A stretch of 63,932 bases of DNA, counting the filler, from an uncultured bacterium (GTDB lineage Bacteria > CAYSBA01): assembly GCA_964429075.1 (NCBI GenBank). It is 7 parts of 7 records of this genome, joined end to end, with 100 filler letters (N's around TTAATTAATTAA, not from the genome) between each part and the next. Parts side by side here need not be neighbours in the genome. Positions count along the whole stretch, not along the records: positions 1 to 9,969 come from CAYSBA010000025.1; 6 more parts are not named here. One strand, given 5' to 3'. Below are positions 1-11,376 of the stretch, piece by piece. Numbering within the stretch: position 1 is the stretch's first letter; each line of letters starts with the position of its first letter. The notes beneath the pieces are model-generated. The model was not told the DNA's origin and ran no database searches. It saw only the letters and a program-made list of their open reading frames with translations. Both the position numbers and the translations under genes were made by a program.

Positions 1-2366
1 ATCAGAAGGTTTTTACCATCCTTTGAGTATCTTATTGTTAATGCTGGTGGAGTTCTGTCTATAGTGATTTTAAAACTGAGAGGGGTTGGATCTACACTGC
101 GGGGCATCCCCTTATATCGTGATCTTATCTGAATGTAATGTTCTCCCTCTAAGGCCAAAAGTGGGCTGGTTATCTTGAGTACATCAAATGGAACATAGGG
201 ACTCCACAAAGAGTTGTCTATCCTGTAGGAGAACTCTCTGTCTTTCCCCCACATTTTGAATAATAAAATTGGAAACTTACCTGTACTATAATCTATATTT
301 TTTAAGCTTCCTTCTGTCTCTGAAGAAAGGATGATCGGGTTTTGACCCTGTGGAACAAAATCGAGCCTGGCAAAGACTCCTATAAAATCGTAAGGTCCGT
401 TTGCACTTCCATCTGTTGCAACTCCCCTTATTCTGTTGTCATCAAGAACAAGTTTCAGTCCCTGAAGGTCAGGTATTGGGATCTGTACATTTATAACACC
501 AGAAAGCATGGACATTACCGACCCGAGTAGTGTGTTGAGGCTATCCTGGATCTGTGCAGGATCCTCCTTCAACAACTCACTGTATGTGACCTGTAGGTTA
601 TTTACCGCTATAGCATTGCTTGGCATTACAGGTATTAGTACGGTCTGCCCTGTCTGGCTGTCTATGTCAGTAGCAAGACTCAATGCAATGTCTATATCTT
701 GATCTGTGCTCAGGACCCTTACCATCCTTTCTTCAACCACTGCATAAAAATCTATTGAAAGACCATGGAGCATTATAGTAATAAGTGGATCTTCTGTAAC
801 AGGTCCCTGATCTGTAAACTCTACAATACCGGATCCGATTTTGAGAACCGGGGCCTGCGATGGTCTTAGTACAATCTTCATTGGTGAGGGGTTATTGTGG
901 GTTATCTCGCCCAAAGATGGCAGGAGAGTGGATAACATTGATGTATTAAGCATATCAAAACTCGATGTATCTACCGAAAGACACAGACCACCAGATGCAT
1001 AGAAACTCCAGAGTGTATAATTTAAGAATTGCTTTGCAACAAGTATGGCTGCATCGTATCCTTCATCCTGATCAATTGTGCCATCGCCATTAAAATCCAA
1101 TGAATCTGGTAGTTGAGGTCTTTGAGGCACTCCAAAATCAGGTGTTTCTGTAACCTGAACACAGTCTGATAAATCTGGTTCAAAGCCAGATAATACCCTT
1201 ATTTCAAGGCCATCATTGACTATAATTGGATCGACTGTTGTCTGTAGTTGCTGCCCTGGTGCAATCTGATATTTGAGAGAAACATCGGTTTGAAAATCTA
1301 CATCCTGAACAGAATCTGAGATATTCATCTTGCCAACAGAACCCAGTGGTTTTGGTACACAGGTTATAGTCTGATCTACTTCGCACTGAGAATTTGGATC
1401 CATAGGATCAGATTGGTTTCTGCAGTGAGCTCCATCTTGACAGCCAAGAGAATAATAATCGCAGGGCATACATAGATTTTTGTTGATCGCATCGGTTATC
1501 TGACCCTTAGTCATATCAACAACAGCATTCCCTATGGTATCAATAAGTAGTGACTTGATTGGTCCCCAATCAAGAAAACTACAGATATTACCAAATTGAA
1601 AATCTCCAGAATCAAGAGTAAAACTGATATCCTTTATATCGAGCGTCAGAAACTTTGTAAGATATTCTTCTGTAACCAGTGCAAGTAACATCTCGACAGG
1701 CTTATTATATATACCTATATCAATACTACAGTTAAAGTTGTTCTGAAGCCAGTCGTTAACTCCAAAACAGTTATATATGTCACTACAGTCACAGGGTGAA
1801 AAAATAGAACACCCACACATTGCAAGAAGTCCAGAATTGTTAATTGTGTTTAGGGTAGATTGACTTATATCACATGACAGCTGGGGTTCAATATGTATCG
1901 GTCCAACAGAAACAATATCTGCCCATACCTTGGAGTCAACTACATTTGGTGGGCTTGTAGAAAATTGACTGCTGTTTACTGAAATCTGTATTTCACAGTC
2001 TCCTATACATAGCCATACCTCAACACTAACAAGACAGTTTATTCCTATTGAACTCAAATCTGGCACACCAACCAGATTGTCAAGACAAAGATCATAGACC
2101 TTCTGTTGAGGAATAGGAAAGCTGAAACCATAGGGCATAAACATGTTGAGGATATCTCCAAGGTGTTGCTCAACAAAATCAAATCCACTACTTGTTACGC
2201 GCATCTGTAGGCCGTCGTACATGATTTTATCCTGTGTTATAGGTTTGTCAGGCTGGGTTGAGCAACTACATCCTCCACCTCCACAACCATCACCCGAAAG
2301 GGAAAAGATTAGAATTAAAAAAAATACTGAAAACAGCTTTATAGATAGTGTACTTTTTATCTTCAT
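1..2366 (-). CDS. Large exported Cys-containing protein with BPI/LBP-like (TULIP) N- and C-domain motifs, an EF-hand-like loop and a C-terminal Ig/FN3-like segment; 3'-truncated by the window edge
   Basis: Not in the ORF track because it has no stop in the window. Read by hand from ATG at 2366: MKIKSTLSIKLFSVFFLILIFSLSGDGCGGGGCSCS...YDGLQMRVTSSGFDFVEQHL...DFNGDGTIDQDEGYDAAILVAKQFLNYTLWSFYASGGLCLSV...FSYRIDNSLWSPY...RYSKDGKNLL. Frame is consistent from 2366 to position 3. Confidence 0.8.
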   Translation of the reverse strand, partial: MKIKSTLSIKLFSVFFLILIFSLSGDGCGGGGCSCSTQPDKPITQDKIMYDGLQMRVTSSGFDFVEQHLGDILNMFMPYGFSFPIPQQKVYDLCLDNLVGVPDLSSIGINCLVSVEVWLCIGDCEIQISVNSSQFSTSPPNVVDSKVWADIVSVGPIHIEPQLSCDISQSTLNTINNSGLLAMCGCSIFSPCDCSDIYNCFGVNDWLQNNFNCSIDIGIYNKPVEMLLALVTEEYLTKFLTLDIKDISFTLDSGDFQFGNICSFLDWGPIKSLLIDTIGNAVVDMTKGQITDAINKNLCMPCDYYSLGCQDGAHCRNQSDPMDPNSQCEVDQTITCVPKPLGSVGKMNISDSVQDVDFQTDVSLKYQIAPGQQLQTTVDPIIVNDGLEIRVLSGFEPDLSDCVQVTETPDFGVPQRPQLPDSLDFNGDGTIDQDEGYDAAILVAKQFLNYTLWSFYASGGLCLSVDTSSFDMLNTSMLSTLLPSLGEITHNNPSPMKIVLRPSQAPVLKIGSGIVEFTDQGPVTEDPLITIMLHGLSIDFYAVVEERMVRVLSTDQDIDIALSLATDIDSQTGQTVLIPVMPSNAIAVNNLQVTYSELLKEDPAQIQDSLNTLLGSVMSMLSGVINVQIPIPDLQGLKLVLDDNRIRGVATDGSANGPYDFIGVFARLDFVPQGQNPIILSSETEGSLKNIDYSTGKFPILLFKMWGKDREFSYRIDNSLWSPYVPFDVLKITSPLLALEGEHYIQIRSRYKGMPRSVDPTPLSFKITIDRTPPALTIRYSKDGKNLL

Positions 2367-2454
2367 TCTTTTACCCCGTAAATGTCTGATAAAAAGCATA
2401 TCACTATTTGAATTTATTTACAATCTATATTAGAATTATTACTAAGTGAGCTAT

Positions 2455-2481
2455 TTGACAAAAACGAAACAGCCTTATAAT
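2455..2481 (+). promoter_or_regulatory. Putative sigma70 promoter for the Cys-rich lipoprotein pair
   Basis: TTGACA (2455-2460) and TATAAT (2476-2481), perfect hexamers but a short 15-nt spacer; GGAGG SD before ATG 2518. Confidence 0.45.
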
Positions 2482-2517
2482 AAATATATAATAAATATAT
2501 TTCCGGAGGATTAAAAA

Positions 2518-3480
2518 ATGAGATATCTTGCGAAGATCTTTTTATTAATCTTTTTAGTTTTTGGTCTTGTTTTTTGTGGGAAGTCAACTGGAAATAATAA
2601 AGGAAATAACGACAACAATGGATCGGGCACAAATTTCTGTGCTTCAGATTCAGAATGCCCGGATGGACAGGTGTGTAATGGTGGTGTTTGTGAGGATGAA
2701 GGCATTACAAAATGTAGCAGTGATGCAGACTGTTCAGGTGGCAAAAAGTGTAATATGGTAAGTGGAAACTGTGTGGAATGCCTTTCAGACTCAGATTGTC
2801 AGACTGATTACAGTTGTGTAAACAACGAATGCAAACCAATCTCAGCAGGTTCGTGCGATCCTCCCTGTGCAGATGGTGAAAAGTGTGTTGAGAGACTCTC
2901 TCAGTGCAAACCACAGGACTGGTGCAGTCAGGATAGTGATTGTCCTACAGGACAGGCCTGCAATATGTTGAGTAATACCTGTGAGCAGAGCGGCTGTGTT
3001 GCAGACTCAGATTGCCCTACGGGTTATTATTGCGACAATGGTGAGTGTAAACAGGATCCCTGTGGTGGCATGTGCCAGGGGGCAACTCCCTATTGCGATG
3101 AGACAACAGGTACCTGCGTAGAGTGTCTTGGTGATAGGCACTGTCAGGCCGGTGAGGTTTGTGATGCCAGTACCCATACCTGTCAACCAGAAGGTGGTGG
3201 GTCCTGCTGTCCTGGCGGAAGCTGTCCAGGTGGCTATGTATGCAACGAGACCACCTGTCAGTGTGAACCTCCTGGTGGTGGGTGTCAGGATGGTGCTCAG
3301 TGTCAAACAAACTCAGACTGTGGATCGGGTGGTACATGTAACCCACTTACAATGACCTGTAGCTGTGGTGGTGGAGGAGGTGGTAACTGTCAGCAGATCG
3401 GAGATCCCAACATGTGTATGCTTCTTTGTTCCTTTATGGGTGGCACATGTGATGCACAGGGCAACTGTTGTACTCCATAG
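2518..3480 (+). CDS. Cys-rich repeat lipoprotein
   Basis: Signal peptide ending LVFC-G; tandem C-x-x-D-x-D-C-x5-C-x4/6-C units; 51 Cys by hand count. Confidence 0.85.
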   Translation: MRYLAKIFLLIFLVFGLVFCGKSTGNNKGNNDNNGSGTNFCASDSECPDGQVCNGGVCEDEGITKCSSDADCSGGKKCNMVSGNCVECLSDSDCQTDYSCVNNECKPISAGSCDPPCADGEKCVERLSQCKPQDWCSQDSDCPTGQACNMLSNTCEQSGCVADSDCPTGYYCDNGECKQDPCGGMCQGATPYCDETTGTCVECLGDRHCQAGEVCDASTHTCQPEGGGSCCPGGSCPGGYVCNETTCQCEPPGGGCQDGAQCQTNSDCGSGGTCNPLTMTCSCGGGGGGNCQQIGDPNMCMLLCSFMGGTCDAQGNCCTP

Positions 3481-3515
3481 CTAATTCTAAAAAACTTAAT
3501 TTTGAGACATAAGCT

Positions 3516-4322
3516 ATGAGTTATGCAAGATTAACATTTATTCTTACAATCTCTTTAATCTTATACGTATCTGCATGTGGTAAAGACAACACAAACAAAT
3601 CTGACAACAGACCTGATTGCTATATAGATACAGACTGCCCTTCAGGTTATTTCTGTACTGATGGCAGCTGCAAGATAAAACAGTGTGAGAATGACTCTGA
3701 TTGCTCTTCAGATATGGTCTGTAATCTTATTACATACGAATGTGAAACACCACAGACTCACTGCAGTCCAATAGATGATTGTGTGTCTGACAATGATTGT
3801 TTTCCCACACAGTCCTGTATTGGATGTAGATGTATAGATAAAAGCAGCATTTGTGATCCAGAATGTTCAGAAAATGAGGTATGCGTACAGAATACCTGCG
3901 TTGAAGATACACCCTGTGATCCAGAATGCAATCCTGGTATGCATTGCATAGAGCAAGATTCAGAATATGTTTGCGTTGAATGTGTAACAAACGCAGATTG
4001 TACAGACGGTAAACTGTGTTATCAAAACAGCTGTCAGGATGAGTCAACTCTATGTAACTGTATGCCTGGCGATGTATGTGATACAACTGGAGATGTCCCT
4101 CACTGCAGACCAAAGGAGTGTGATACAGATGCAGACTGCATGCAGGGCGAGATCTGTGTCAACAACCTTTGTGAGTCTGACCCCAATTACAACTGTAACA
4201 TCCAGTGTCCTCTTGGATATCGATGCAACAACGATACTGCTAACTGCGAGCCAATACCCTGTAACACCGATGCAGATTGCCCACAGGACATGACATGTGT
4301 TAATGGGATCTGCGGCTTTTAA
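3516..4322 (+). CDS. Cys-rich repeat lipoprotein
   Basis: Lipobox VSAC-G; same four-Cys repeat; 43 Cys by hand count. Confidence 0.85.
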   Translation: MSYARLTFILTISLILYVSACGKDNTNKSDNRPDCYIDTDCPSGYFCTDGSCKIKQCENDSDCSSDMVCNLITYECETPQTHCSPIDDCVSDNDCFPTQSCIGCRCIDKSSICDPECSENEVCVQNTCVEDTPCDPECNPGMHCIEQDSEYVCVECVTNADCTDGKLCYQNSCQDESTLCNCMPGDVCDTTGDVPHCRPKECDTDADCMQGEICVNNLCESDPNYNCNIQCPLGYRCNNDTANCEPIPCNTDADCPQDMTCVNGICGF

Positions 4323-4402
4323 ACCAAATAGGTCGATTTACCTATATACAATACTGTGATTTTTACCCATAATAGATTTAGAACATATCAATGGAGGAGA
4401 AA

Positions 4403-4672
4403 ATGAAAAAAAGTAGTGCAAGAAGGTTATTGAAGAATAAGAAAGGTCAGGGTATGGTGGAGTACATCATAGTTATTGCCCTTGTAATGATCGCCGCAAT
4501 TGGGATCATATCGCTGTTCGGTAAAAACATCAGAGCACTATTTGCAGGCGCTGTAGATGCCCTTGGTGGGAATACAAATGTATCAGTTGAAACCCACGAA
4601 GCAGCACAGGTACAGGATAAGAATCTTAAAGATTTTGGTGAAAATCTGGGTGCGAGCGACGTTCAACAGTAA
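4403..4672 (+). CDS. Flp/Tad-type pilin
   Basis: Basic leader, then prepilin site G|QGMVEY (E5, Y6) and a hydrophobic helix; GGAGGAG SD before ATG 4403. Confidence 0.88.
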   Translation: MKKSSARRLLKNKKGQGMVEYIIVIALVMIAAIGIISLFGKNIRALFAGAVDALGGNTNVSVETHEAAQVQDKNLKDFGENLGASDVQQ

Positions 4673-4701
4673 GCATTTGTGTACAATTTAGGTTTAATTT
4701 G

Positions 4702-4727
4702 GGCCACTTTTTTAAGTGGCCTTTTTT
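4702..4727 (+). terminator. Rho-independent terminator after the pilin
   Basis: GGCCACTT-TTTT-AAGTGGCC followed by TTTTTT. Confidence 0.8.
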
Positions 4728-4743
4728 GTTTTTAAGGCACTAA

Positions 4744-4772
4744 TTGACATAATCCAAAAAAATTATTATATT
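4744..4772 (+). promoter_or_regulatory. sigma70 promoter of trxA
   Basis: TTGACA-N17-TATATT. Confidence 0.65.
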
Positions 4773-4804
4773 CTAATAATCTAATATTTTAATGGAGGAT
4801 GGAT

Positions 4805-5134
4805 ATGCCAAATGTGATGGAAGTAACAGATGGAACCTTTGAAAAAGAGGTACTTAAGTCAGATCTGCCCGTATTTGTTGATTTCTGGGCACCGTGGTGT
4901 GGCCCATGCAGGATGGTATCACCTATTGTAGAAGAGCTATCAGATGAGTATGATGGTAAGGTTAAATTCTGCAAGGTAAACACCGATGAGAATCAGATGG
5001 TGGCATCAAGTCTCGGTATTAGAAGTATCCCAACCATGATTATTTTTAAGGATGGTAAACCGGTTGATGCAGCTATAGGCGCCATGCCAAAGGAGATGTT
5101 AAAGGACTTTATTGATAGAACAATTGCCAAATAA
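4805..5134 (+). CDS. trxA: Thioredoxin
   Basis: DFWAPWCGPC active site and IPT cis-Pro motif; start 4805 or 4799. Confidence 0.96.
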   Translation: MPNVMEVTDGTFEKEVLKSDLPVFVDFWAPWCGPCRMVSPIVEELSDEYDGKVKFCKVNTDENQMVASSLGIRSIPTMIIFKDGKPVDAAIGAMPKEMLKDFIDRTIAK

Positions 5135-5158
5135 CCTGTGCTTTAAAAATAAATAAAT

Positions 5159-5189
5159 AAAAAAAAGCGGGCAAATGCCCGCTTTTTTT
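5159..5189. terminator. Bidirectional terminator between trxA and the fad operon
   Basis: A-tract, GCGGGC-AAAT-GCCCGC, T-tract. Confidence 0.85.
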
Positions 5190-5191
5190 AT

Positions 5192-7570
5192 TCAGTTTCT
5201 AAGAGGTTTGCCGGTCATCAATAGGGCCTGCATCCTTTCCTGACTCTTCTTTTCACCACAAAGGCTCACAAATGCCTCTCTCTCAAGATCAAGAAGATAT
5301 TGCTCTGTTACAGGCTTCCATCTCTTTGCCTCATCTCCACCACACAGGATATGAGCCAGCTTGGAGCCAATTAATTCATCGTGTTCACTGATAAGACCCC
5401 TTAGTCTCATACTTTTTAATGAGTCTACAAGTACTAGTTCTACTTCTTTACCCGGGAGATAGATCTCTTCTAAGGGAGTTTGTGATTTGTAATTCTCTGA
5501 CATCTTGATCGCAATCTCTTTGGCCTTTTTAATCCTGTGATCTGGATTAAATACGAATATATCATCGCTTTTTAGGTATCCTAACTTTTTGGCATTTTTT
5601 GCACTCATAGATACCTTTGCAAAGCCAATGAGTTCGAAGGCCTTTCTTATTGGAGGGAAGAAACCACCCTGAACAGACTCCTGCATCCTTATTACCATCT
5701 CTTTACAACCACCGCCAGCAGGGATGAGGCCGGCACCCACCTCAACAAGACCCATATAAAGCTCAGGGGATGCAACAACACGGTTTGAGCCAAGTATGAC
5801 TTCACAGCCTCCGCCCAGTGCCATATTGTGTGGTGCAGAGACCACTGGAATAGATGAATACTTTAACCGCATGGTAGCACTCTGGAATTGTCTGACTGCC
5901 TCATTGACTGCATCCCAATCACCGGATTGACTCAACATCAGAATCAACATCAGATTTGCACCTGCAGAAAAGTGTTCACCATCGTTTGCCACAACGAGAC
6001 CTCTACCATCCTTTTCTGCAATATCACATGCCCTGTGGATCATCTTTATGATGTCATCATCTATGGCATTCATTTTGGAATGAAATTCAAGCAGAAAGAT
6101 TCCATCATCGATATCATAGATGCTTGCAGATAGATTTTTTTCTACAAGCTTTTCTTTGCTGGATTTTAGTATGTCAAAGTAAAAGGATGATGGGTCGAGT
6201 TCTACAGGTTTATAATCTCTCTGTGTAAAATCAAAGTACAACTTTTTCATATTTTCATAGCGGTAAAGATCTTCTATATCCTTAAGGTCATCTGGAACCG
6301 GTTTGGATGTTTCAGAAAGACGTTTTGTAAAAAAGTCAAGTCCGATTGCATCAAGGCTCTCAAAAGGACCCATGTCCCAGCCAAAGCCCCATCTCATTGC
6401 TCTATCTATATCGACAATATTGTTGGCAATCTCATCTTTTATCTTCAGGGTGTAAAGAATAGTTGAGCTGAACACCTCCCATGCCATTCTGGCAGCATCA
6501 TCTTCACCTGCAAGGAGAGTCTTGAGTCTTTCTGAGGGATCGTCGATCGACTTTGCTGCACTCAGAGATGGAAATTTCCTTTTTTCTGGTTCAAAATACT
6601 CCATCTTTTTGACATCTAATGCAAGGATCTTCTTTTGTCCGTTCTTTTTGATCCTTTTGTAGAAGCCACCTCCTGCCTTTGCACCGAGTAGTTTTTGATC
6701 TATCATAGTTTTTAAGAACTCTGGTGGCCTAAAAAGATCCCTCTCTGGATCATCCGGACATCCTTCGTAAATGTTGTTTGCCACATGATAGAGTGTATCT
6801 ATTCCTACAAGATCAGCTGTTCTGAACACAGCACTCTTTGGTCTACCCATCGGTTTTCCAAAAATGTTGTCTATATCTTTGATAGTCAAGCTGGATTCAG
6901 GAAGGAGTGAGAGGACCTTCATCATTCCATATACACCGATGCGGTTGGCTATAAAATTTGGTGTATCCTTGGCCTCAACTACACCTTTACCAACCCTGTC
7001 CCTTATAAAATGATACATGAACTTGAATACATCTTCATCTGTGTCATTGGTCCTTACAAGTTCGACAAGTCTGAGATATCTAGGTGGGTTAAAGAAGTGG
7101 GTGATTAACATGTGTGCCCTCATCTCTTCATCAAGACCCTCTTTGAGGAGCCTTAGAGGAATACCGGATGTGTTGGAACTGACAATACTTTTTTTCTTTC
7201 TGTATCTTGAAATGGTCTCAAACACCTTTCGTTTGATGTCTAAGTTTTCCACGACAACCTCAATGATCCAATCTGCCTCCCTCATCTTCTCGATGTCATC
7301 CTCCAGATTACCAAGTTCTATTCTCCTTGCATCCCGTTTGTCATAGAGATGGGGTGGTTTTGCTTCGAGCATCCTTTTGAAGTTTGTTTCAACTATGTAA
7401 TTTCTTACCTTTCTATCCCGGGGACTCAGACCCTTAAGTTCAGAAGGGACATCTTTTGGAACTATGTCCAAAAGGAGTACATCTATTCCTACATTGGCAA
7501 GATGGGCAGCAATGCCTGAGCCCATAACCCCGGAACCTACTATACAGACCTTTCTTATATCATCAACCAT
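5192..7570 (-). CDS. fadN: 3-hydroxyacyl-CoA dehydrogenase / enoyl-CoA hydratase (FadN-type)
   Basis: GSGVMGSG Rossmann motif, SSNTSG, HFFNPPRY, C-terminal crotonase domain (GGGCE, PAGGGCKE), ends GKPLRN. Confidence 0.92.
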   Translation of the reverse strand: MVDDIRKVCIVGSGVMGSGIAAHLANVGIDVLLLDIVPKDVPSELKGLSPRDRKVRNYIVETNFKRMLEAKPPHLYDKRDARRIELGNLEDDIEKMREADWIIEVVVENLDIKRKVFETISRYRKKKSIVSSNTSGIPLRLLKEGLDEEMRAHMLITHFFNPPRYLRLVELVRTNDTDEDVFKFMYHFIRDRVGKGVVEAKDTPNFIANRIGVYGMMKVLSLLPESSLTIKDIDNIFGKPMGRPKSAVFRTADLVGIDTLYHVANNIYEGCPDDPERDLFRPPEFLKTMIDQKLLGAKAGGGFYKRIKKNGQKKILALDVKKMEYFEPEKRKFPSLSAAKSIDDPSERLKTLLAGEDDAARMAWEVFSSTILYTLKIKDEIANNIVDIDRAMRWGFGWDMGPFESLDAIGLDFFTKRLSETSKPVPDDLKDIEDLYRYENMKKLYFDFTQRDYKPVELDPSSFYFDILKSSKEKLVEKNLSASIYDIDDGIFLLEFHSKMNAIDDDIIKMIHRACDIAEKDGRGLVVANDGEHFSAGANLMLILMLSQSGDWDAVNEAVRQFQSATMRLKYSSIPVVSAPHNMALGGGCEVILGSNRVVASPELYMGLVEVGAGLIPAGGGCKEMVIRMQESVQGGFFPPIRKAFELIGFAKVSMSAKNAKKLGYLKSDDIFVFNPDHRIKKAKEIAIKMSENYKSQTPLEEIYLPGKEVELVLVDSLKSMRLRGLISEHDELIGSKLAHILCGGDEAKRWKPVTEQYLLDLEREAFVSLCGEKKSQERMQALLMTGKPLRN

Positions 7571-7596
7571 TATTTACCTCCATTATAAAGGTAGAA

Positions 7597-8742
7597 TCAA
7601 ACCCTCTCAATTATAGTTGCAAGACCCTGCCCACCACCTATGCACATTGTCTCAAGACCAACAGTCTTATCAAAGTCTATAAGATCATAAATCAGGGTCG
7701 ACATGATCCTTGCACCGGTACAGCCGAGGGGATGACCAATTGCAATTGCTCCACCCTTTGGATTTAGCTTTGATTCATCGATCCCGAGTTGATCAACAAC
7801 AGCAATTGATTGTGAAGCGAATGCCTCGTTTAGTTCGACTATGTCTATATCAGACAGACTCATACCTGCCCTCTTCAATGCCTTTGGCACAGCTTTCACA
7901 GGCCCGACACCCATAAATTCAGGTTCAACCCCTGCTGCTGCAAAAGCAACAATCCTTGCAAGTGGTTTTACACCATATTTCTTTACAGCAGACTCAGACA
8001 TAATAACACATGCAGCAGCACCATCATTCATAGGGCTTGAATTTCCAGCAGTTACAGTACCATCAGCCATAAATGCAGGTTTGAGTTCTGCAAGCTTTTC
8101 AAGAGATGTATCTTCTCTTGGACATTCATCCTTATCAAAGATCCGCCCATCAGATAGGGTAACAGGTACAATTTCTTTTTTAAAAAGTCCATCTTTTTGG
8201 GCCTTGATTGCCTTCTGGTGACTCTTTAATGCAAATCTGTCCTGTGCCTCCCTTGTAATGTTATATTTCTTTGCAATATTCTCTGCAGTTATACCCATTG
8301 GAATGTATGCCTGTGGAAAATCGGGGTTGAAGAATTTTTCATTAAAAGAGGGGTTAAATCCACCCATTGGTACATGAGACATACTCTCCACACCTCCAAC
8401 CACGAAGATATCCCCAAAACCTGACATTATGTATGATGCCGCAATGTTAATCGCCTCAAGACTTGAGGCACAAAATCTGTTCACTGTAAATGCCGGGACA
8501 TCTACCGGAAAGCCAGCAAGTAGCCATATCAATCTTGCCACATTAAGACCCTGTTCACCTTCCGGCATTGCACAACCAATAATTACATCATCAACATCTT
8601 CAGGCTTCAACCCTTCGACTCGCAAGACAGCCTCTTTTACTACAAGGGCACCAAGATCATCTATTCTCTCTGTTACAAGACTACCTTTGTTTGCCTTTCC
8701 AATAGGGGTCCTTACTGCAGACACAATGTAAGCCTTAGCCAT
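7597..8742 (-). CDS. fadA: Acetyl-CoA C-acyltransferase (3-ketoacyl-CoA thiolase)
   Basis: NRFCASS, NEAFA, GHPLGCTG and CIGGGQG motifs. Confidence 0.92.
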   Translation of the reverse strand: MAKAYIVSAVRTPIGKANKGSLVTERIDDLGALVVKEAVLRVEGLKPEDVDDVIIGCAMPEGEQGLNVARLIWLLAGFPVDVPAFTVNRFCASSLEAINIAASYIMSGFGDIFVVGGVESMSHVPMGGFNPSFNEKFFNPDFPQAYIPMGITAENIAKKYNITREAQDRFALKSHQKAIKAQKDGLFKKEIVPVTLSDGRIFDKDECPREDTSLEKLAELKPAFMADGTVTAGNSSPMNDGAAACVIMSESAVKKYGVKPLARIVAFAAAGVEPEFMGVGPVKAVPKALKRAGMSLSDIDIVELNEAFASQSIAVVDQLGIDESKLNPKGGAIAIGHPLGCTGARIMSTLIYDLIDFDKTVGLETMCIGGGQGLATIIERV

Positions 8743-9091
8743 TTTCTCCTCCTTCTGGTGTTAAAGATTTTGTTTTATTCATTAGATATATAATATTTGC
8801 AGGGCACATAAAAAAATCATCGATGTTTAAACTCTCTTTACCAGCTGTCTCATCGTGGTATACAACATCTATCCTGAAGGGGTAGTCACTTTTGAGAGGA
8901 TCACAAATCCCGCACTCTATACAACCCCAGCGTTGAAAACTTTTTTCGATCTTATCAATATCGAATGGATAAAGACCATCATCTTTATAAAGGTCTATAA
9001 AGACATCAGCACCCTCATCCTCAGGTGATCTGGTTAATCTCGAAACAAGATGTTTTATGAGTGCCAACCCGAGTATTATATAGCTCTTCAT
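8735..9091 (-). CDS. Small hypothetical protein with a ferredoxin-like CxxCxxC...CP motif
   Basis: GCIECGICD...MCP; overlaps the thiolase start by 8 nt. Confidence 0.6.
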   Translation of the reverse strand: MKSYIILGLALIKHLVSRLTRSPEDEGADVFIDLYKDDGLYPFDIDKIEKSFQRWGCIECGICDPLKSDYPFRIDVVYHDETAGKESLNIDDFFMCPANIIYLMNKTKSLTPEGGENG

Positions 9092-9170
9092 GATAATATA
9101 CTTTTCGTTGAATAATCCCTATCATTTATGGAACAGTGTGTCAAACATAAACAGATATTGTATGTATAAT

Positions 9171-9195
9171 AAAAAAGGACCCAAAAAGGGTCCTT
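9171..9195 (-). terminator. Terminator of sodB
   Basis: Minus strand AAGGACCC-TTTTT-GGGTCC-TTTTTT. Confidence 0.75.
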
Positions 9196-9229
9196 GATGA
9201 GTGATTATTTTAAGGGGTACTCGCTCTGC

Positions 9230-9808
9230 TTATGAATTGTAGCGCTCTAAGACTCTATCCCAGTCTACAACATTCCACCAGGCTTCAATATAATCAGGCC
9301 GTCTGTTCTGATATTTTAGATAGTATGCATGCTCCCATACATCAATTGTTAAAAGGGCCTTAAGACCATGTCTGAGTGGAGTATCTGCATTTTGTGTCTG
9401 GATTATCTTAAGGCTGTCACCATCTTTCACAAGCCATGTCCAGCCAGAACCAAATAGTGTTGCTGCCTTTTGTGAAAACTCCTCCTTGAACTTTTCAAAG
9501 CTTCCAAAGGCATTATTTATTGCAGTCAAAAGGTCGCCTTCAGGTTTTGAACCACCTGGTTTCATGGATTCGAAATAGAAGGTATGATTCCATACTTGTG
9601 CTGCATTGTTGAATATACCGCCCTCTGCATTTTTTATTATCTCTTCGAGGGTCTTGTTTTGCCATTGAGGATCCTTTTCAATTGCAGCATTGAGTTTATT
9701 TACATAGCCTGCATGGTGTTTACCATGATGAATACGAAGGGTTTGTTCATCAATAAAGGGCTCCAATGCATCATACCCATAGGGTAACTCTGGCAGTTTA
9801 AAGGCCAT
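9230..9808 (-). CDS. sodB: Superoxide dismutase, Fe-type
   Basis: HHGKHH and DVWEHAYY; Fe-type signatures FNNAAQVWNH and TQNADTP; GGAGGAG SD before ATG 9808. Confidence 0.93.
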   Translation of the reverse strand: MAFKLPELPYGYDALEPFIDEQTLRIHHGKHHAGYVNKLNAAIEKDPQWQNKTLEEIIKNAEGGIFNNAAQVWNHTFYFESMKPGGSKPEGDLLTAINNAFGSFEKFKEEFSQKAATLFGSGWTWLVKDGDSLKIIQTQNADTPLRHGLKALLTIDVWEHAYYLKYQNRRPDYIEAWWNVVDWDRVLERYNS

Positions 9809-9838
9809 TTTCTCCTCCATCCTAAGGTTTGTTGAAAA

Positions 9839-9875
9839 TTATAATTATTTTAATTATCCACAAAACCAATGTCAA
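9839..9875 (-). promoter_or_regulatory. sodB sigma70 promoter overlapped by a PerR/Fur-like box
   Basis: Minus strand TTGACA-N17-TAAAAT; TTATAATTATTTTAA at 9839-9853 is one mismatch from the Per box TTATAATNATTATAA. Confidence 0.6.
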
Positions 9876-9969
9876 GGCTTAGGCTTAAAATTGGACTAAT
9901 ATGGAAAATATTTATATAAATTATTAAGTAAAAGATCAGGATGATCTCGTCAGGTAAGAAGATCAAAAG

Positions 9970-10069
9970 NNNNNNNNNNNNNNNNNNNNNNNNNNNNNNN
10001 NNNNNNNNNNNNNTTAATTAATTAANNNNNNNNNNNNNNNNNNNNNNNNNNNNNNNNNNNNNNNNNNNN
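9970..10069. other. Artificial contig-join spacer
   Basis: N run with central TTAATTAATTAA, 100 nt. Confidence 0.98.
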
Positions 10070-10246
10070 AAAAACCTCGGTACAAGACGTTTAAGTTATT
10101 CAAAAAACGATTATATTAAGATCATTATTGGGGAAGGCAGTCAGGGTGGTGACAATATAATGATTGACAATCCAATCATAGAGTTTGTAAGAAATGCCAG
10201 TGAAATTAGAGATTATTCAAAGGAATATTTCCTCAGGGCCAGATAA
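10070..10246 (+). CDS. 3' end of an unidentified CDS cut by the contig edge
   Basis: Open frame NLGTRRLSYSKNDYIKIIIGEGSQGG...YFLRAR*. Confidence 0.4.
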   Translation, partial: KNLGTRRLSYSKNDYIKIIIGEGSQGGDNIMIDNPIIEFVRNASEIRDYSKEYFLRAR

Positions 10247-10994
10247 AAAAACCATAAGGTCTATAACAGGGATAGGTCTTTTAATCATCATATTTTTGTT
10301 ATTAAGTTGCGCCACTCAAGAGTCTTTCCGAAAAAAAAGGGCATCTGAATTCAGATATAAAGCGGGTCTTACTCTATTTATACAGAAGCAGTACCAGCAG
10401 GCCCTTGAGGAATTTAACAAAGCACTGGAAAACGATCCTGACAGTTATGAGGCCCACAATGGTAAAGGTATGACCTATCTGGCGATTGGTATGATAGATC
10501 GTGCAGAAGATGAATTCAAAAAGGCGCTCGAATTAAAAAAAGATTATACAGATGCAATGTACAATCTGGGTTATCTCTATATTATCAAAAAAAGGTATAA
10601 AGATGCATCAAAATTATTTGAAAGGATCATAAAAGATCCACTTTATAGGAATACAAATGCTGCGCTGTCCTATTTAGGATGGTGTTATCACAAGATGAAC
10701 AATGACAAAAAGGCTATAGAAACAATTAATAAAGCCATAAAAAGACTCAGAAGCTTTTGTATGGCCTATAAGTTACTTGCAAAGATATTTGTTGACAGAA
10801 AAGATCTTGACAATGCAGAAAAGAATCTCATGCTGTATAAGAAATATTGCAATCAGATTGAAGAGCCCTATCTATTACTCTACGATTTTTACAAGCGTTT
10901 TGAAAAGGGTAAAAAAGTCAATGATATCCTGAATGAATGCATTGATAATGTACCCCAAAATGATAGCTGCAGGAGGCTAATTGAACGAAAGTAA
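10194..10994 (+). CDS. TPR lipoprotein, type IV pilus pilotin Tgl/PilF/PilW-like
   Basis: Lipobox LLSC, TPR repeats, DPLY motif, C-terminal Cys residues as in Tgl, and position just upstream of a rodZ-like gene. Confidence 0.75.
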   Translation: MPVKLEIIQRNISSGPDKKTIRSITGIGLLIIIFLLLSCATQESFRKKRASEFRYKAGLTLFIQKQYQQALEEFNKALENDPDSYEAHNGKGMTYLAIGMIDRAEDEFKKALELKKDYTDAMYNLGYLYIIKKRYKDASKLFERIIKDPLYRNTNAALSYLGWCYHKMNNDKKAIETINKAIKRLRSFCMAYKLLAKIFVDRKDLDNAEKNLMLYKKYCNQIEEPYLLLYDFYKRFEKGKKVNDILNECIDNVPQNDSCRRLIERK

Positions 10995-11376
10995 AGAGGA
11001 GAAAAAGGATTTTATTGAATCACCTGGTGCCTATTTGAAGCAGGAAAGAGAGCTTCGGGGTATTAATCTACGTGATGTGGCAGATCATATGAAGCTATCA
11101 CTCGATTGTCTGAAAAATCTTGAAGCTGACAATTATAAAGAACTACCTGCACCTGTATTTCTTAAAGGCTACTTTAAGACATATGCTGAATATCTCGGTC
11201 TTGATCCAAACGAGGTGTTGCTCATTTACGAACAGTATAAAAACTATATTGAAAATGAGAATCAAACCAAAGATATCGATAATACTTTGGAAAAAAAGAA
11301 AAAAAATTTATTAATTCTCTTTTTTCTTTTTGTGATAGCAATCCTTATCCTTATTTTATTTATCACAAGACAATGA
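10981..11376 (+). CDS. RodZ-like HTH membrane protein (short form)
   Basis: PGAYLKQERE...LPAPVFLKGYFKTYAEYLGLD HTH plus one C-terminal TM; no periplasmic domain. Confidence 0.8.
   Translation: MNESKEEKKDFIESPGAYLKQERELRGINLRDVADHMKLSLDCLKNLEADNYKELPAPVFLKGYFKTYAEYLGLDPNEVLLIYEQYKNYIENENQTKDIDNTLEKKKKNLLILFFLFVIAILILILFITRQ

Follow-up and report, generated by a model that had tools for sequence, protein, structure and literature searches.

A BPI-like double-TULIP protein predicted at a contig end of an uncultured bacterium

The DNA analysed here (the window) is a stretch of 63,932 nucleotides, filler included, from an uncultured bacterium (assembly GCA_964429075.1), and is a chain of contigs that runs of N join (13 in all), positions 1–9969 being the first contig. 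At its very beginning, on the minus strand, lies a gene for a protein related to BPI, LBP and CETP, the textbook animal proteins of lipopolysaccharide (LPS) sensing and lipid movement. We propose, with a probability of ~0.7, that this protein is a secreted, disulfide-rich double-TULIP of the BPI type (core residues 49–671), probably lipid-anchored at the cell surface, which takes up lipids in a carrier-like manner. Two helix-wrapped β-barrels joined by a central sheet would be followed by a stalk domain resembling FN3. The tubular cavity would take up the acyl chains of a phospholipid or of a glycolipid such as LPS, and the protein would hold these lipids or pass them on at the envelope's outer face, in the carrier-like way of CETP or TipA. 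The missing end of the protein would add another Ig-like domain plus a MYXO-CTERM-type tail, by analogy with a paralogue and most relatives, and a myxosortase-like CPBP protease would cut this tail. We infer that the protein binds lipid and sits at the surface, and likewise which lipid it binds; among the functions considered, lipid carriage at the cell surface appears to be the best supported.

Predicted structure and homology to BPI

An AlphaFold2 model of the protein was computed from a 92-member alignment, drawn mostly from the rows shorter than 1000 aa among 150 listed matches, together with earlier matches. The fusion counts given below for 150 relatives refer to these listed matches, out of at least 852 cluster representatives. 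The model has a mean predicted local distance difference test score (pLDDT) of 86.1 and a predicted template modelling score of 0.83, with pLDDT below 50 at residues 1–34 and 415–419 only. It contains two tandem helix–sheet–helix TULIP barrels joined by a central β-sheet. The N-terminal barrel (N-barrel) is built from a strand (48–57), a helix (59–76), long strands (124–154 and 213–248) and a second helix (268–298). The C-terminal barrel (C-barrel) comprises a strand (439–444), a helix (445–457), long strands (495–595), a helix (603–625) and further strands (637–670). The parts of the gene and its surroundings are as follows.

3..2366, minus strand: BPI-like protein gene, 3'-truncated, 788 aa present; alternative in-frame ATG at 2399
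2286..2366, minus strand: signal peptide, residues 1–27, with a basic n-region and hydrophobic core, ending at Cys28 (by inspection)
2262..2288, minus strand: GCGGGGCSC cysteine cluster, residues 27–35; C28 and C33 nearly invariant, at least 90% conserved in the family
1467..2222, minus strand: N-terminal TULIP barrel, residues 49–300 (AlphaFold2 model, VIA-align to BPI, profile alignment)
1728..1874, minus strand: cysteine-rich insertion in the N-barrel, residues 165–213, 8 Cys; lower confidence (pLDDT 57–78)
1359..1472, minus strand: six-cysteine knot after helix B, residues 299–336 (C299, C302, C309, C315, C328, C336); columns invariant or nearly so in both alignments
1176..1346, minus strand: first half of the central sheet, residues 341–397 (AlphaFold2 model)
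1053..1175, minus strand: variable inter-barrel linker, residues 398–438, the equivalent of the BPI proline-rich linker
1062..1097, minus strand: EF-hand-like loop DFNGDGTIDQDE, residues 424–435, in the inter-barrel linker, predicted coil
354..1052, minus strand: C-terminal TULIP barrel and second half of the central sheet, residues 439–671 (AlphaFold2 model, profile, VIA-align)
48..335, minus strand: FN3/Ig-like β-sandwich, residues 678–773, modelled as a separate β-sandwich at 685–769
3..47, minus strand: residues 774–788, start of the missing C-terminal part; relatives continue with a further Ig-like domain and a sorting tail
2367..2517, no strand: AT-rich intergenic region between the BPI-like gene and a divergent cysteine-rich lipoprotein gene starting at 2518 (ORF listing)

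A Foldseek comparison with BPI and CETP, which the preliminary description of this sequence had proposed, returned BPI (E 5.4e-17), LBP (2.1e-15) and CETP (3.9e-14) as the top ranks in the PDB, followed by the bacterial TULIPs OrfX and P47 at 1e-6 to 1e-4. All structure matches compare a predicted model of the window protein, and not an experimental structure, with PDB structures. VIA-align gave 14.1 and 5.9 for BPI (1bp1), with 438 of 456 BPI residues aligned to model residues 49–671. The corresponding values were 12.9 and 4.2 for CETP (2obd; 431 of 472 residues) and 12.6 and 8.9 for LBP (4m4d; 423 of 442 residues). A search independent of Foldseek, over 48,161 representative chains, also placed BPI (13.7) and CETP (12.9) at the top; its third row (9.0) covered the FN3-like domain (678–772) only.

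Sequence comparison reaches the same proteins. A profile of 92 homologues, searched against PDB sequences, matched BPI at E 2.8e-8 (35.7 bits) and LBP at E 0.013. The BPI match consists of two stretches, one per barrel, with individual E values of 1.6e-4 and 1.2, so that its significance is carried by the total, the second stretch alone being weak. Profile positions 47–223 align with BPI residues 2–179. In the first stretch, the family consensus 'dnavqvrltssGldfleqn' aligns on BPI 'NPGVVVRISQKGLDYASQQ'; in the second, 'ymvGigvsdqfLdkalwdaynsGlLClni' aligns on the second BPI segment. These are the same two segments, GLQMRVTSSGFDFVEQHL (2213–2160, residues 52–69) and AAILVAKQFLNYTLWSFYASGGLCLSV (1052–972, residues 439–465), from which a two-domain protein like BPI, LBP and CETP had been postulated at the outset. 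Profile homology to BPI at both segments, alongside the predicted fold, therefore bears out that central inference. Judged by profile and model, the window protein is a remote BPI/LBP/CETP homologue and not a mere look-alike, which shows the BPI fold to be homologous, not convergent, between bacteria and animals.

The family falls below the thresholds of the Pfam domain models. PF01273 matches none of 48 homologues, and PF02886 (LBP_BPI_CETP_C) reaches 17.2–19.5 bits in three of the 48, under its gathering cut-off of 23; these sub-threshold matches cover the region equivalent to the C-barrel. A six-frame search of the genome with PF02886 gave no match. The Pfam scan of the window protein returned Pox_A8 (E 0.19) as its sole match, and the NCBIfam scan returned none. 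In an Atlas cluster of Myxococcota proteins, 30% of the members carry PF01273; with a score of 0.81, we regard this cluster as a lead only.

A real reading frame, cut by the contig end

The reading frame at 3–2366 (minus strand) is confirmed. Translation from the ATG at 2366, as suggested in the preliminary description, runs through 788 codons (window 3–2366) to the contig end with no in-frame stop, and the four motifs named there all lie where they had been placed, including GCGGGGCSC (2288–2262, residues 27–35). We estimate that 788 codons free of stops would arise in DNA of ~40% GC with a probability of ~1e-22. An ORF finder reports a 3'-open frame of 799 aa at 3..2399. We favour the start at 2366 over that at 2399 because the purine-rich GGGGTAAAAGA lies immediately 5' of it and homologues begin at the equivalent point. 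Contig C25 begins at window base 1, which truncates the gene; the part present spans positions 1–711 of the 832-position family profile.

We searched for the missing end in the assembly (282 contigs, 1.54 Mb, 70.8% complete) and beyond it. A scan of all stop-to-stop open reading frames (ORFs) of the 282 contigs with the family hidden Markov model (HMM) found no missing end, and recovered the window gene, a paralogue on contig C204 and an unrelated PKD-domain protein on contig C32 only. An exact 50-base scan of metagenome contigs for the missing end gave 0 matches. Logan contigs of the single public DNA run that holds the gene, which is labelled hot springs metagenome and may be its source sample, span 113–2520, and none extends past the window start. 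The run contains 92% of the gene's words; no RNA run was listed as containing the gene. At window position 878, the window has T where the public run has G (one Logan contig, depth 11.2).

A large family with conserved cysteines

A word-indexed search found 12 relatives at 23–32% identity, among them one from a Kofleriaceae bacterium and one annotated as 'MYXO-CTERM domain-containing protein'. An exhaustive search of 1.84 billion cluster representatives yielded 852 at E ≤ 1e-3, 608 at 1e-10 and 279 at 1e-30, the best relative having 34% identity. The family thus comprises at least 852 sequence clusters and has no Pfam or NCBIfam model. The same genome encodes a complete 733-aa paralogue on C204 with 29% identity. 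Named relatives belong to Myxococcota and include a Myxococcales metagenome-assembled genome (MAG). A genome search at phylum level returned this genome alone, and the 30 relatives offered share the domain level only; the family was matched in 8 of 31 distant genomes, most of these matches being to the Ig-like part only.

The N-terminus MKIKSTLSIKLFSVFFLILIFSLSG looks, by inspection, like a signal peptide, in keeping with the signal peptide and GCGGGGCSC cluster noted earlier. Cys28 is preceded by a non-canonical GDG (GDGC), whereas relatives have a lipobox-like x-x-[GA]-C. In most of them, a cysteine directly follows the hydrophobic core, as in lipoproteins, and a strict lipobox regular expression is satisfied by 100 of 149. 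There are 23 cysteines in the window protein, and across 92 homologues conservation reaches at least 90% at 11 cysteine positions. The reading of the protein as cysteine-rich and secreted is supported. The six-cysteine knot (299–336) sits between helix B and the central sheet. The eight-cysteine insertion (165–213) occurs in the window protein only and is absent from the 13 relatives in a 14-sequence alignment.

Acidic barrels and an EF-hand-like loop

The mature window protein has a net charge of −49 and an isoelectric point (pI) of 4.2, with −20 (pI 4.05) on the N-barrel and −14 on the C-barrel. The median charge of N-barrels in the family is −12.5, and pI exceeds 8 in 4 of 88 homologues. 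The LPS affinity of BPI is attributed to its cationic N-terminal domain. BPI is described as having strong affinity for negatively charged LPS (PMC10584675). The cationic N-terminal barrel of the LPS-binding branch formed by BPI and LBP was looked for in the window protein and not found, and LPS binding in the style of BPI, as first suggested for this protein, is weakened accordingly. An acidic barrel speaks against the BPI mode and is better suited to a carrier like CETP or TipA.

The loop DFNGDGTIDQDE had been read as a complete EF-hand-type loop. It does fit the EF loop pattern (ligands in positions 1, 3, 5 and 12, glycine in 6, a hydrophobic residue in 8), but the surrounding structure does not follow. 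DSSP assigns coil to residues 398–432 with no helix before the loop, and pLDDT is 51 at residues 411–420 and 56 at 421–430. The region varies in length and sequence among relatives and is the counterpart of the BPI proline-rich linker. An EF-loop regular expression matches 3 of 163 family proteins, and only the window protein at the linker site, the other two matching at unrelated sites. No EF-hand family was found at E ≤ 1 in the Pfam scan of the window protein. Across genome ORFs of at least 100 aa, the expression finds 23 loops among 623,187 residues, most of them in large ORFs with repeats; the pattern looks like a locally common DxDxDG-type motif. The loop is therefore not a family feature and not a structural EF-hand, and we think it doubtful that it binds Ca2+.

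Sorting tail and myxosortase

The C204 paralogue ends in a cysteine, a hydrophobic helix and an arginine-rich stretch (GC...FLLFTLLILS...RRRWKGN). By our own regular expression, such a tail is present in 59 of 86 short-form relatives, and clear fragments are among the remaining 27. Proteins of Myxococcus xanthus are sent to the cell surface by their MYXO-CTERM tails, and the tag is called universal within Myxococcota (both PMC11980579). A MYXO-CTERM-like tail, for which the preliminary description had suggested looking, is present in the paralogue and in most homologues, whereas the C-terminus of the window copy was not recovered.

The genome also encodes an MrtX-like CPBP protease (contig C34, 1471–2154, plus strand). 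The CPBP match at C34:1519–2148 covers profile positions 17–238 of 238 (222 positions), and the protein also matches the Pfam Rce1-like family at E 3.3e-14. Its gene directly follows an ATP synthase A-chain gene and a small ORF, which we take from its position to be the ATP synthase c subunit. Similar tails occur in at least four further ORFs of the genome (six regular-expression matches, two of which look spurious). The PKD-domain protein on C32 (2153–3100, plus strand) ends in GGCSC, a hydrophobic helix and RCRR, and its sequence makes it another candidate substrate of the same sorting system. The genome is alone in its phylum among those searched, yet it has MYXO-CTERM-like tails and cysteine repeats of the Myxococcota type.

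Weighing the proposed function

Several points weigh against a surface-anchored lipid carrier of the BPI type. Neither PF01273 nor PF02886 matches the window protein at E ≤ 1 in Pfam, and a direct phmmer search against PDB sequences finds nothing (best E 1.2); the homology consequently rests on the profile and the predicted structure. The MYXO-CTERM model TIGR03901 scores 16.2–18.6 bits in 5 of 11 scanned relatives, all below its cut-off of 20, and the MrtX-like CPBP protease reaches 108 bits with NF040593, whose cut-off is 180. The C-terminus of the window copy lies outside the assembly, so that its own anchoring is argued by analogy, and its N-terminal lipobox is non-canonical. A shared fold, moreover, is no proof of a shared function.

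One alternative is a housekeeping shuttle, periplasmic or tethered to the outer membrane, that ferries phospholipids, LPS or lipoprotein acyl chains of its own cell to the surface or from one membrane to another, and that has no action on other cells. The very large family (852 clusters), the presence of two paralogues in a small genome and the lipoprotein-like N-terminus would suit such a role, and known TULIPs include intracellular lipid shuttles (PMC5507252). Against it stand the surface destination of MYXO-CTERM tails in M. xanthus (PMC11980579) and the patchy distribution of the family in distant genomes; genes for envelope biogenesis were looked for among the neighbours and none was seen. 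We consider a housekeeping shuttle unlikely.

Many Myxococcota are predators, and the relatives come largely from this group. A weapon or sensor like BPI or LBP would bind the LPS of other Gram-negative cells, be they prey or competitors, and permeabilise or extract their outer membrane, possibly with the EF-like loop conferring Ca2+ dependence. BPI is the best match in both structure and sequence, the canonical Ca-loop pattern is present, and divalent cations could link an acidic protein to the phosphates of lipid A. TipA of the predatory Bdellovibrio is, in addition, described as destabilising bilayers (preprint 10.1101/2025.09.09.675085). The charge of the N-barrel (−20, pI 4.05; basic in 4 of 88 relatives) speaks against this alternative, as does the loop, a low-confidence coil that lacks a helix–loop–helix, occurs at this site in 1 of 163 proteins and follows a pattern found 23 times in genome ORFs as a common local motif. 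Because the barrels are strongly acidic, a cationic membrane attack as by BPI is less likely than carriage, and we judge a weapon or sensor improbable.

To our knowledge, lipid binding is shared by all double-TULIPs examined to date (BPI, LBP, CETP). For OrfX and P47, a helper role for another secreted factor has been proposed. A TULIP serving as scaffold only, in an adhesin, structural surface protein or helper for a secreted factor with no lipid cargo, would agree with FN3/Ig-like domains and cysteine knots typical of adhesins, with the weaker structural matches to OrfX and P47 and with frequent fusion to a lectin-like propeller, but is very unlikely given that both barrels are conserved at full length across hundreds of clusters, that the alignment spans 438 of 456 BPI residues and that TipA, a studied double-TULIP, is reported to bind lipid (10.1101/2025.09.09.675085).

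A propeller partner

Many relatives are 1,200–1,600 aa long. An HMM built from the C-terminal extension of four such long forms matches 64 of the 150 representatives listed; the extension is a seven-bladed β-propeller lipoprotein fused in frame behind the TULIP, and the propeller resembles bacterial sugar-binding lectins most. In 61 of the 64, the fusion junction consists of a cysteine, a membrane helix and an arginine-rich stretch. A second hydrophobic stretch with a lipobox-like cysteine follows within 70 residues in 53 of 64 by a strict regular expression, and several of the remaining 11 show a second signal-like stretch by eye. The long forms were examined as predicted proteins and not as DNA. 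From these sequences, their topology fits a helical hairpin that could be cut by two enzymes to give two lipid-anchored proteins. Internal MYXO-CTERM motifs are described as rare, with MXAN_5598 as an example (Guo et al., PMC11980579).

In two distant genomes, a gene of its own encodes the extension close to the TULIP gene: two genes downstream in G010 and directly downstream in G024. On contig C118 of G024, the end of the TULIP homologue (8015–11260, minus strand) overlaps the start of a 955-aa lipoprotein-like ORF (5155–8022, minus strand) by 8 bases, which suggests translational coupling of the two; this ORF has no Pfam match. In the genome of the window, the extension is a stand-alone 682-aa lipoprotein (C34:4071–6119, E 1.3e-73). 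It lies 2 kb beyond the MrtX-like CPBP gene on the same contig.

A tentative extension of the carrier model, which we hold to be possible although well short of probable, is that the double-TULIP forms half of a two-part surface glycolipid machine, in which the propeller would grip the glycan and the TULIP would take the acyl chains. The precursor would run from TULIP–FN3 through an internal MYXO-CTERM helix and an arginine-rich turn to a second, lipobox-bearing signal peptide and the propeller. Cleavage by a myxosortase and a lipoprotein signal peptidase would then yield, from one chain, two surface proteins each anchored by lipid, and the lipid taken up, for example LPS, might come from other cells or vesicles. 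Such a system would exist outside Myxococcota too, in a genome alone in its phylum.

Relation to described proteins

Human BPI, LBP and CETP (1bp1/1ewf, 4m4d, 2obd; PF01273 and PF02886) share ~10–12% identity with the window protein. The latter differs from them in being bacterial and strongly acidic and in having ~170 extra insert residues, at least 11 conserved cysteines, a six-cysteine linker knot and added FN3/Ig domains; its relatives add a MYXO-CTERM-like tail and a lipoprotein-like N-terminus.

Bacterial proteins of the BPI fold have already been reported, and the window protein is not the first. The earlier statement that no characterised bacterial protein has this architecture is outdated. 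TipA (Bd2538) of Bdellovibrio bacteriovorus, a BPI-like double-TULIP, has been characterised structurally and biophysically, and its authors mention homologues in AFDB with fused β-rich domains (preprint 10.1101/2025.09.09.675085). As far as the available text of that preprint goes, TipA is traced to residue 566, forms a homodimer mediated by a hairpin and has a separate adapter with a C2-like sandwich, TipB; a sorting tail and cysteine knots are not described there, and this description sets TipA apart from the window protein. TipA was not among the PDB matches of the window protein in the structure and profile searches. A 2023 report placed human BPI in a cluster with bacterial AlphaFold models, such as A0A2D5ZNG0 (TM 0.81), its figure legend naming a Deltaproteobacteria and a Planctomycetes bacterium (PMC10584675). 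By structure comparison only, OrfX1, OrfX2, OrfX3 and P47 of clostridial neurotoxin clusters, and YceB, are much weaker matches than BPI and CETP and have other domain arrangements.

The MYXO-CTERM proteins, such as TraA, which is sorted by MrtX, provide a second point of comparison. The relatives and the paralogue share their tail of cysteine, membrane helix and arginine-rich stretch, the genome of the window has an MrtX-like CPBP protease, and TraA-type proteins carry the TIGR04201 cysteine-rich repeat, as do the neighbours of the window gene. The differences are the tail of the window copy, which is not in the assembly, and the matches to TIGR03901 and NF040593, all of which stay below cut-off.

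Our literature searches found no printed description of this particular family; among the papers listed for BPI and Myxococcota, judged by title and the start of the abstract, none dealt with such a protein. The study of bacterial BPI relatives is at its beginning, with one structure (TipA, a 2025–26 preprint) and predicted structures noted in 2023. The family is distinct in its acidic barrels, conserved cysteine knots, FN3/Ig stalks, MYXO-CTERM-type anchoring and frequent fusion to a lectin-like propeller, and hundreds of 'hypothetical proteins' gain a named fold. If surface lipid carriage holds, the family would be a candidate for the way in which Myxococcota-like bacteria acquire, donate or sense membrane lipids between cells in the course of predation, outer-membrane exchange or vesicle traffic.

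Gene neighbourhood

No operon partner is seen on contig C25, where the downstream side of the gene is off-contig, and no conserved neighbour was found beyond the propeller partner in two distant genomes. In the Myxococcales MAG, the flanks of the locus are unrelated, going by the ORF listing alone. In the intergenic region upstream of the gene, a single weak sigma-70-like match lies on the plus strand at 2408–2436; promoter-like sites there are no commoner than in shuffled sequence.

Divergent from the TULIP gene, two adjacent genes on the plus strand encode lipoprotein-like proteins composed of cysteine-rich repeats. The first (2518–3480) matches TIGR04201 (Myxo_Cys_RPT) at 39.7 bits, above the cut-off of 25, and shows a faint TraA-like match (17.9 bits; cut-off 750). 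The second (3516–4322) reaches 15.6 bits with TIGR04201, below cut-off, and 29.7 bits with Dumpy_DPY, whose cut-off is 27. The repeats of the two resemble the N-terminal region of the C34 propeller lipoprotein, with 31% identity over 142 and 120 residues (E 1e-8 and 2e-7), a likeness at the level of repeats. A small ORF follows (4391–4672, plus strand), with an N-terminus weakly like that of Flp/Fap pilins (Pfam E 0.0026, 18 bits, cut-off 32.2), and after it comes a terminator-like hairpin at 4701–4722. Further along lie genes for a thioredoxin and for a FadB-type 3-hydroxyacyl-CoA dehydrogenase/enoyl-CoA hydratase; the latter is convergent, and a strong bidirectional terminator-like hairpin of 13 pairs (5160–5189) stands between the two.

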